A program made the translations under genes and the position numbers. DNA of 60,743 nucleotides, filler included, from Candidatus Woesearchaeota archaeon (lineage in GTDB: Archaea; Nanobdellota; Nanobdellia; SCGC-AAA011-G17; CAYFGV01): NCBI GenBank assembly GCA_964342845.1. It is 3 parts of 3 records of this genome, joined end to end, with 100 filler letters (N's around TTAATTAATTAA, not from the genome) between each part and the next. Parts side by side here need not be neighbours in the genome. Positions count along the whole stretch, not along the records: positions 43,295 to 60,743 come from CAYFGV010000011.1; 2 more parts are not named here. One strand, written 5' to 3'. Positions 56,364 through 59,305 of this stretch are shown here, piece after piece (positions within the stretch are counted from its first letter, which is position 1; every line of letters begins with the position of its first letter). The notes beneath the pieces are model-generated. The model saw only the letters and a list, made by a program, of their open reading frames with translations, had not been told where the DNA came from and did not search any database.

Positions 56364-56447
56364 GTCTCGGTAGCTTAATGGTGGAGCCCCCGGCTGTTAA
56401 ATAATGTAGAAACCGGGAGGTCGCAGGTTCGAGCCCTGCCCGAGACG
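56364..56447 (+). tRNA. tRNA-Asn(GTT) with 12-nt canonical 37/38 intron (56400-56411)
   Basis: GTCTCGG/CCGAGAC acceptor, CCCGG/CCGGG anticodon stem, GTT at 56396-56398, TTCGAGC T-loop, G73; TATA at about 56331. Confidence 0.92.
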
Positions 56448-58572: not shown

Positions 58573-58638
58573 AAAATCTTTTCTTTTTTCTTTTAAAACA
58601 ACAAATTTATAAACCAATAATATTCTCATTTCTTATAT

Positions 58639-58840
58639 GGGGCTGTGGCTCAGACAAACACAGTTTGGAGCAATCTGGCTAGAGCACTCGTTTGGTCAAC
58701 AAAAAACCAAGGTGAAACTGATATGGCCAGGTCTTATCTTCGGATAAGTTTGAAGGGTTTACTCTTACTTGCTTTTCATAGAAATCGAGAGTAACTAAAG
58801 TTACCGACAAAGGTCGGGGGTTCAAATCCCCTCAGCCCCA
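58639..58840 (+). tRNA. tRNA-Ile(GAT) with four introns: 58654-58673 (15/16), 58691-58716 (30/31), 58724-58783 (37/38), 58790-58810 (43/44)
   Basis: Removing the four segments gives a 75-nt cloverleaf GGGGCTG TG GCTC AGTCTGGCTA GAGC A CTCGA CTGATAA TCGAG AGGTC GGGGG TTCAAAT CCCCT CAGCCCC A; TATA TTTATAAA at about 58606. Confidence 0.85.
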
Positions 58841-58861
58841 CTCATTTTTTAAGTAATTTTA

Positions 58862-59305
58862 TCAAAATAGCCTTCTCAAAGAAAATTTACGCAAATAATC
58901 AAACAAATTTTTAGGGCCATATAGCAACTTCCCTCTAATCATATTTAGTCCAATATAACCCCTTCCTTCATTTTCCCACATTAATCTTTCTAAATCAGTT
59001 CTTGAACAAAGATATAAAGAAAACCTATCCTTAAAATCCCCACTTAACCTATCTTTAATTTCTTTTCTTAATTTTGCCCTCTGTTCACTTTCAAGAGTTC
59101 TATAATCAAAAGTAGGTATTGTATCTTTCCAAGCAGAATAATCTTCATCGTTAATAAGTACAAATAAATCTATATCGGATTTTTCAGGATCCCATGAACC
59201 ATTAAGATAACTTCCAAAAAGTCTAACACAGTGAACAGATGGAATAACGTCAACTATTGTATTTACCAAATCAAATAATTCACTTTCAATCTGCTTATTG
59301 CCCAT
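58862..59305 (-). CDS. Minimal nucleotidyltransferase (MNT)-domain protein
   Basis: LFGSY...SDIDLFV. Confidence 0.8.
   Translation of the reverse strand: MGNKQIESELFDLVNTIVDVIPSVHCVRLFGSYLNGSWDPEKSDIDLFVLINDEDYSAWKDTIPTFDYRTLESEQRAKLRKEIKDRLSGDFKDRFSLYLCSRTDLERLMWENEGRGYIGLNMIRGKLLYGPKNLFDYLRKFSLRRLF

Follow-up and report, generated by a model that had tools for sequence, protein, structure and literature searches.

The DNA analysed here, referred to as the window, is 60,743 nt long and consists of contigs C9, C10 and C11 of G000, a 573-kb genome assembly (~30% G+C, 84.8% complete). Most of the sequencing runs that contain DNA of G000 are marine metagenomes. On C11, a tRNA-Ile(GAU) gene of 202 nt occupies positions 58639–58840 of the plus strand (C11:15345–15546) and is interrupted by four introns. 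It is preceded by a TATA-like box, TTTATAAA, at 58606–58613 (+), 26 nt upstream. Other tRNA genes of G000 are preceded by similar boxes, and the present one is a putative promoter of the gene. A scan for sigma-70 promoters was set aside as unsuited to an archaeon. On the other flank, a run of six T residues at 58845–58850 (+), 5 nt downstream, is likely an archaeal terminator. The neighbouring gene, at 58862–59305 on the minus strand, encodes a minimal nucleotidyltransferase (PF01909); its 3′ end lies 21 nt past the tRNA gene, and its match to the MntA type is weak and below the cut-off. A second tRNA gene in the window, tRNA-Asn(GUU) at 56364–56447 (+), carries a 12-nt canonical intron.

The five exons of tRNA-Ile(GAU) were delimited by splicing in silico and by alignment to orthologues. 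Exon 1 (58639–58653; 15 nt) holds tRNA positions 1–15, and exon 2 (58674–58690; 17 nt) holds positions 16–30, including the D-loop bases at 58674–58681. Exon 3 (58717–58723) comprises only the 7 nt of positions 31–37, with the GAU anticodon at 58720–58722, and exon 4 (58784–58789) the 6 nt of positions 38–43. Exon 5 (58811–58840; 30 nt) completes the molecule with positions 44–73; CCA is not encoded. The exons, all on the plus strand, sum to 75 nt. They are collinear within the 202 nt, so that the gene is classed neither as a split nor as a permuted tRNA gene.

The introns between these exons, also on the plus strand, each form with the flanking exons a bulge–helix–bulge (BHB) motif that is relaxed on at least one side. 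Specifically, intron 1 (15/16; 58654–58673; 20 nt) is of the HBh′ type, with a complete central helix (4/4), an inner helix of 5 bp and an outer helix of 1 bp. Intron 2 (30/31; 58691–58716; 26 nt) likewise has a 4/4 central helix and a 5-bp inner helix, with an outer helix of 2 bp. The canonical intron 3 (37/38; 58724–58783; 60 nt) forms a relaxed motif with three of four central pairs, an inner helix of 2 bp and an outer helix of 1 bp. Its 5′ 8 nt are complementary to the D-loop. Intron 4 (43/44; 58790–58810; 21 nt) also has three of four central pairs, A38 facing C, with an inner helix of 5–6 bp and no outer helix in the precursor. All four introns end in AA, as the preliminary description had read them. 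Intron 3 also carries a degenerate copy of a two-hairpin module common to 10 other long canonical introns (L010, L035, L202, L209, L241–L243, L266, L275 and L276), in which six of the ten predicted pairs show compensatory changes. No C or D box was seen in intron 3 by eye, judged against the motif consensus for box C/D guide introns, and no Rfam match to a group I intron was found at the locus.

We evaluated the spliced and unspliced forms of the gene using ARAGORN and Rfam. ARAGORN called the 75-mer spliced in silico a tRNA-Ile(GAU); each of its four stems is paired, with a single G-U pair in the T-stem. The coordinates and pairings first proposed for the four introns all hold. The unspliced gene yielded no ARAGORN call and no Rfam match at the gathering score; the T-arm alone scored, at E=2.75. 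Among the 15 forms that retain at least one intron, six received no call, six were mis-called as Ser or Val, and three were called Ile. The expectation that standard scanners would miss or mis-assign the gene thus held for both programs when applied to the precursor, and for ARAGORN when applied to partly spliced forms.

The junctions were obtained independently by spliced alignment to intronless orthologues, blind to those originally proposed, and the same four were recovered. On sequence alone, intron 4 could also be placed at 44/45 or 45/46, as could intron 3 at 36/37; we chose 43/44 and 37/38 because these are fixed by BHB geometry together with the orthologues. When the exons are joined, the 43-nt core that spans all four junctions is identical to its intronless counterparts at 42 of 43 positions (L244) or 41 of 43 (L038 and L041), among the 24 intronless genes listed for the comparison. 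These orthologues are contiguous over all four junctions. The acceptor and T stems of the G000 gene diverge from those of its relatives and remain paired. In a control in which the exons were kept fixed and the intron sequences shuffled 20,000 times, with the observed central and inner helices as the target, none of the shuffles reached the helices of intron 1, 2 or 4, and 3.0% reached those of intron 3. All four motifs were jointly matched by none of the 20,000. Finally, a single contig from run X2 (study P2, distinct from the possible source study) covers 58595–58922 with no differences, and run X5 (study P4) covers 58654–58814, again with none; the matches are assembled contigs and attest to the presence of the DNA only. 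In run X4, the intron-bearing part of the gene is not covered. At the DNA level, the four-intron gene is confirmed. It is very probably functional.

To place the gene among its relatives, orthologues were collected by two pattern searches of the 240 genomes of the order. Merging identical genes among the matches listed gave 92 Ile(GAU) genes; the searches mostly missed stem introns longer than 30 nt, and the counts that follow describe this retrieved set rather than the order as a whole. Spliced alignment to the intronless orthologues assigned zero, one, two, three and four introns to 25, 17, 20, 26 and 4 genes, respectively. The most frequent position was 37/38 (n=59), followed by 27/28 (28), 43/44 (22), 30/31 (21) and 19/20 (9). 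Rarer positions were 15/16 (5), 45/46 (4), the T-loop (2) and the acceptor stem (1). In G001, the sole other genome of the family, the same gene is interrupted at 37/38 and 43/44 alone, with no break at 15/16 or 30/31. Introns similar to the 15/16 intron of G000 occur in four other retrieved genes, and all end in GAGCAA. The G000 gene combines four intron positions, every one of which is also found separately in the order.

Three other retrieved genes have four introns: that of G212 (19/20, 27/28, 37/38 and 43/44), that of G073 (19/20, 27/28, 37/38 and 59/60) and, less certainly, that of G171 (7/8, 15/16, 30/31 and 37/38). Because the four genes belong to four families and have four different layouts, that of G000 being 15/16, 30/31, 37/38 and 43/44, they most likely arose separately by the piling up of common introns. 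A fourth intron considered in the Ile(GAU) gene of G034 (L232; G034:C84) was rejected, its central helix having two of four pairs and the acceptor stem being unpaired, and the gene was counted as having three. The 3′ acceptor strand of this gene pairs at four of seven positions, and it may be a pseudogene or have a replaced 3′ end. Three-intron candidates for tRNA-Lys and tRNA-Asn were also seen in relatives (L007, L230 and L298). In another genome of the order, G152, a group I intron (RF00028, 84.8 bits; L300:409–604, G152:C1) lies in an apparent tRNA-Tyr gene adjoining the Ile(GAU) gene, which places self-splicing and BHB introns side by side.

Wider searches were made for two of the intron positions. 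A class-level search for the 30/31 intron, using a pattern that relies on the stem sequence of the order, matched 14 of 401 genomes, 13 of them within the order; the one match outside it, in G357, does not align as a tRNA. A GTDB-wide pattern scan for the 43/44 layout gave, among the 80 loci listed, 75 bacterial and 5 archaeal loci, the latter labelled Woesearchaeota or Nanoarchaeota. These labels, with the affinity of the EndA of G000 to that of Nanoarchaeum equitans among solved structures, point to a DPANN archaeon of the Woesearchaeota type.

No second tRNA-Ile(GAU) gene was found in the 84.8%-complete assembly by ARAGORN, Rfam or scans for T-arms, D-arms and anticodon arms; several tRNAs are missing from the assembly. 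Its long ORFs contain 5215 AUU and 1337 AUC codons among 132,509. Of the roughly 24 tRNA genes recognized in G000, 8 lack introns, 11 carry a single intron, 3 carry two, the present gene carries four and 1 is cut by a contig end; a genome-wide scan of spliced sequences missed several of these, and the remainder were read by eye. One of the two-intron genes, tRNA-Ile(UAU) at C8:710–829 (−), has introns at 29/30 and 37/38 and is mis-called as Val by ARAGORN. Its canonical intron likewise pairs with the D-loop. None of the five genomes tested yielded TiaS, which fits the use of a UAU anticodon in this tRNA. Another, tRNA-Arg(UCU) at C14:5917–6017 (+), with introns at 30/31 and 37/38, is mis-called as Ile(UAU); its 30/31 intron ends in GGTGAA, as does that of the Ile(GAU) gene. 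Reading by eye also placed a non-canonical intron at 53/54 of Gly(GCC) (C5:21848–21940, −), one at 15/16 of tRNA-Cys (C14:6073–6172, +), and a D-loop intron together with a canonical intron in Leu(UAA) (C7:4756–4890, −).

We used constrained folding to estimate the cost of presenting each BHB motif. In the full precursor at 37 °C, the costs were 1.3 kcal/mol for intron 2, 2.7 for intron 1, 4.6 for intron 4 and 12.4 for intron 3; nearest-neighbour models treat BHB bulges crudely. The cost of intron 3 was 8.3–9.2 kcal/mol after the loss of intron 1 or intron 2 and 4.6 kcal/mol after the loss of both. At that stage, the motifs of introns 3 and 4 cost the same at 37 °C (4.6 kcal/mol), and 5.5 and 8.2 kcal/mol, respectively, at 15 °C. 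Once intron 3 has been removed, the cost of intron 4 is 2.8 kcal/mol. The high cost of intron 3 in the precursor is due to a helix of 8 bp between the D-loop (58674–58681) and the first bases of the intron, which is present already in the unconstrained fold. In the folded models, this helix also lengthens the 2-bp outer helix of intron 2.

Based on these data, we propose the following pathway. A single precursor of ~200 nt would be transcribed and would mature through four rounds of EndA cleavage at the BHB motifs and RtcB ligation, followed by trimming of the ends and addition of CCA. Before any intron is removed, intron 3 would pair through its 5′ end with the D-loop, extending the weak outer helix of intron 2 and burying the 5′ splice site of intron 3. 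Introns 2 and 1 would be presented first. Only after both have left could the anticodon stem and the D-arm fold, which would uncover intron 3. Intron 4, with the weakest motif, would be removed most easily last, when pairing between the anticodon loop and the variable loop becomes available. Such ordered removal would spare the 7-nt and 6-nt exons simultaneous cutting on both sides. We favour this reading, a functional gene spliced in order with the help of one intron (introns 2 and 1, then 3, and probably then 4), with a probability of roughly 0.8. An ordered refolding pathway had been suggested in the preliminary description; folding, together with covariation in relatives, predicts one.

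The leading alternative is that the gene is functional and its introns leave in no fixed order, the complementarity between intron 3 and the D-loop being a by-product, or inherited without function. As a by-product, it would arise since the D-loop resembles the anticodon-loop bases with which every canonical intron must pair. In the G000 gene itself, when the first 9 nt of intron 3 were scrambled, the cost of intron 2 rose only from 1.3 to a median of 2.0 kcal/mol. Of 60 scrambled sequences, 14 performed no worse than the native one, so that the help from intron 3 falls short of significance in this gene alone, a result in favour of the alternative.

The two readings were compared further using the retrieved orthologues. 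Among the 21 genes that have a 30/31 intron, D-loop pairing by the first 9 nt of the 37/38 intron was stronger than that of shuffled versions of the same 9 nt (p≤0.05) in 16, compared with 9 of 25 genes that have a 27/28 intron and 2 of 13 that have neither. These 21 genes represent 10 families of related, non-independent genomes, a kinship that inflates the counts in favour of pairing and makes the p-values overstate the covariation. Two genes without a stem intron, L023 and L025, pair well too. However, the pairing sits at the 5′ end of the intron, away from the strand that forms the central helix, and 10 of the 21 genes with a 30/31 intron, vs 6 of 38 others, have a helix of at least 5 bp in the six 5′-terminal nucleotides of that intron. 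The pairing also follows each gene's own D-loop: when introns and D-loops were swapped among the 21 genes, the observed mean was reached in 29 of 5000 permutations.

The same tendency was seen in a held-out set of 10 genes with a 29/30 or 30/31 intron, hand-picked, mostly of other isotypes and including tRNA-Arg(UCU) and tRNA-Ile(UAU) of G000. Their median pairing energy was −4.35 kcal/mol vs −1.55 in 16 genes with a canonical intron only, a comparison in which the D-loop of one gene (Cys of G001) was mis-picked and at least two control junctions are perhaps displaced by 1 nt. In this set, 3 of 300 swaps reached the observed mean, and only one of the ten genes beat its own shuffles at p≤0.05.

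Folding of the orthologues gave a further comparison. The cost of presenting the 30/31 motif was lower when the native canonical intron was kept than when it was removed in 19 of 21 genes, and lower than with a scrambled 5′ end of that intron in 18 of 21. For the 27/28 introns, no helper effect of the canonical intron was detected (12 of 25 either way), and for the 43/44 introns, keeping the canonical intron brought no gain (12 of 22). A terminal C that could pair with G45 is found on the canonical intron of 13 of the 22 genes that contain a 43/44 intron vs 1 of 37 that lack one. The G000 intron lacks this C, which, together with the mismatch in the central helix of intron 4, counts against the favoured reading; its terminal A fits the departure of intron 4 last in this gene and earlier in many relatives. 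Given the position and recurrence of the pairing, its specificity in the swap controls and the 12.4 kcal/mol needed to present intron 3 in the precursor, we consider unordered removal unlikely.

A single gene for EndA was found in G000 (C19:6863–7390), encoding 176 residues and scoring above the TIGR00324 cut-off. The catalytic residues Y112, H122 and K153 are aligned, the C-terminus is acidic and of the L10 type, and the closest solved structure is that of Nanoarchaeum equitans. Neither a paralogue nor a second subunit was detected: each of seven genomes, several of them 92–96% complete, gave one match of 176–210 residues, in a search that could overlook a very divergent beta subunit. With one match each in G000 and six relatives, the enzyme is best read as an α4-type EndA. 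The sequence alignment to the Methanocaldococcus jannaschii enzyme (1a79) over the hairpin before the SLVEA helix revealed no CSL (L1) or ASL (L2) insert, and the Tyr-His segment is equal in length to that of M. jannaschii and 6 residues shorter than that of N. equitans. The preliminary description had supposed an EndA of broad specificity. The substrates still point that way, but the protein itself is a lone α subunit with no insert of the L1 or L2 type relative to the solved structures. Lysine 39 (G000 numbering) is common to all seven EndA sequences as judged by eye; that it has a role is speculation.

RtcB was found in all five relatives searched and not in the 84.8%-complete assembly of G000. 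In G073, the RtcB match is in two pieces (C3:17392–18730), and in G171 (C11:19256–20431) it lies in an 898-residue frame, with a weak second piece elsewhere. An intein, an intron or a split gene is possible in these two cases. In G000, endA lies head to head with a metallo-β-lactamase gene (L001:322–1788, on C19), which by its motif looks like RNase Z; the two look like a small tRNA-processing pair.

A less probable alternative to ordered splicing is that the gene is dying: intron 4 or intron 3 would no longer be spliced, and isoleucine codons would be read by an unassembled tRNA-Ile(GAU) or by tRNA-Ile(UAU). The incomplete assembly leaves room for the former, and the gene for the latter is present. 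Two of the four motifs have three of four central pairs, that of intron 4 with its A38-C mismatch and without an outer helix, and a loopless α4 EndA is described as narrow (PMC6379350, Table 1). Against this, the exons contain no disrupting change, and a central helix with three of four pairs is common in the canonical introns of the retrieved orthologues. The sequence is also identical in other studies and flanked by the TATA-like box and the T-run, and we judge a dying gene very improbable. An assembly artefact or a chance cloverleaf produced by four convenient deletions has a negligible probability and is taken as refuted: four free deletions, with exons down to 6 and 7 nt, do confer much freedom, but the joined core matches intronless orthologues, each intron position recurs in relatives, and neither the shuffles nor the independent contig that spans the gene fits such an origin.

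Multiple introns in one archaeal tRNA gene have precedents. In published accounts, the number per gene is given as "one to a maximum of three" (PMC3239211), "a maximum of three" (PMC4033280) and "two or three" (PMC6379350). The four introns were initially considered exceptional; they do exceed the three of the reviews, yet 4 of the 92 retrieved Ile(GAU) genes of the order have four. The multi-intron tRNAs of Thermoproteales (Sugahara 2008, as described in PMC4033280 and PMC3239211) reach that maximum of three and go with an (αβ)2 EndA bearing the crenarchaeal loop, whereas the gene of the DPANN genome G000 has four introns and is accompanied by a single-gene, α4-type enzyme. For Asgard archaea, one study reports 228 tRNA introns in three genomes, with most tRNAs interrupted and many containing multiple non-canonical introns (PMC11291895). 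The G000 gene resembles these in its multiple non-canonical introns and belongs to a different lineage. The Asgard intron table (PMC11291895, Supplementary Data 4) may already list a four-intron gene. In full-text searches on archaeal and DPANN tRNA introns, mainly of open-access literature, we found no report of a four-intron tRNA. One match contained the phrase "four introns" as a count of T-loop introns.

Ordered and nested tRNA splicing is known (PMC3728597 and PMC3978253). In the first, RT-PCR of the three-intron tRNA-Ile(UAU) of Cyanidioschyzon merolae showed that the non-canonical introns are removed before the 37/38 intron, in an order set by BHB stability. That tRNA is eukaryotic, has three introns, and has BHBs described as folding independently. 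In the G000 gene, by contrast, there is overlap between the motifs and predicted pairing of one intron with exon sequence that belongs to the motif of another; the canonical intron may also be lost ahead of the 43/44 intron. No paper on pairing between an intron and the D-loop was found in the literature consulted, where nested introns are represented by reviews.

In several DPANN lineages, α4 EndAs coincide with increased tRNA disruption, which is tied to an L3 loop in the C-terminal region (PMC5829648). The G000 enzyme is encoded by a single copy, as in all seven genomes tested. The segment between its catalytic Tyr and His has the length found in the narrow M. jannaschii EndA. Relative to these systems as described, the chemistry is familiar and the intron number is above the three of the reviews; the covarying helper helix, combined with a plain α4 enzyme, is the new part. 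The four introns thus extend the published range, with its maximum of three in the reviews, and do not represent a different mechanism.

The gene raises the documented intron load of one tRNA past the reviews' three, in a form that recurs within a DPANN order. It also explains some of the "missing" tRNAs in such genomes, since neither ARAGORN nor Rfam detects the gene, and a wrong amino acid is assigned to two genes of G000 with two introns each. Further, it provides a compact test of how overlapping BHB motifs around exons of 6–7 nt are ordered, and of whether relaxed motifs can be cut by an α4 EndA that lacks any known specificity loop. A broader reading, which we put forward tentatively and at somewhat less than even odds, is that the canonical 37/38 intron of this DPANN order acts as a splicing scheduler, through which a plain, loopless homotetrameric EndA could handle four introns. 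In genes with a 30/31 intron, its 5′ end may evolve to pair with the gene's own D-loop; in genes with a 43/44 intron, its last base may tend to C and close the 43/44 motif. Possibly, then, the introns build one another's recognition motifs. If true, this reading would supersede the rule by which a specialised endonuclease is required wherever tRNAs are heavily disrupted.
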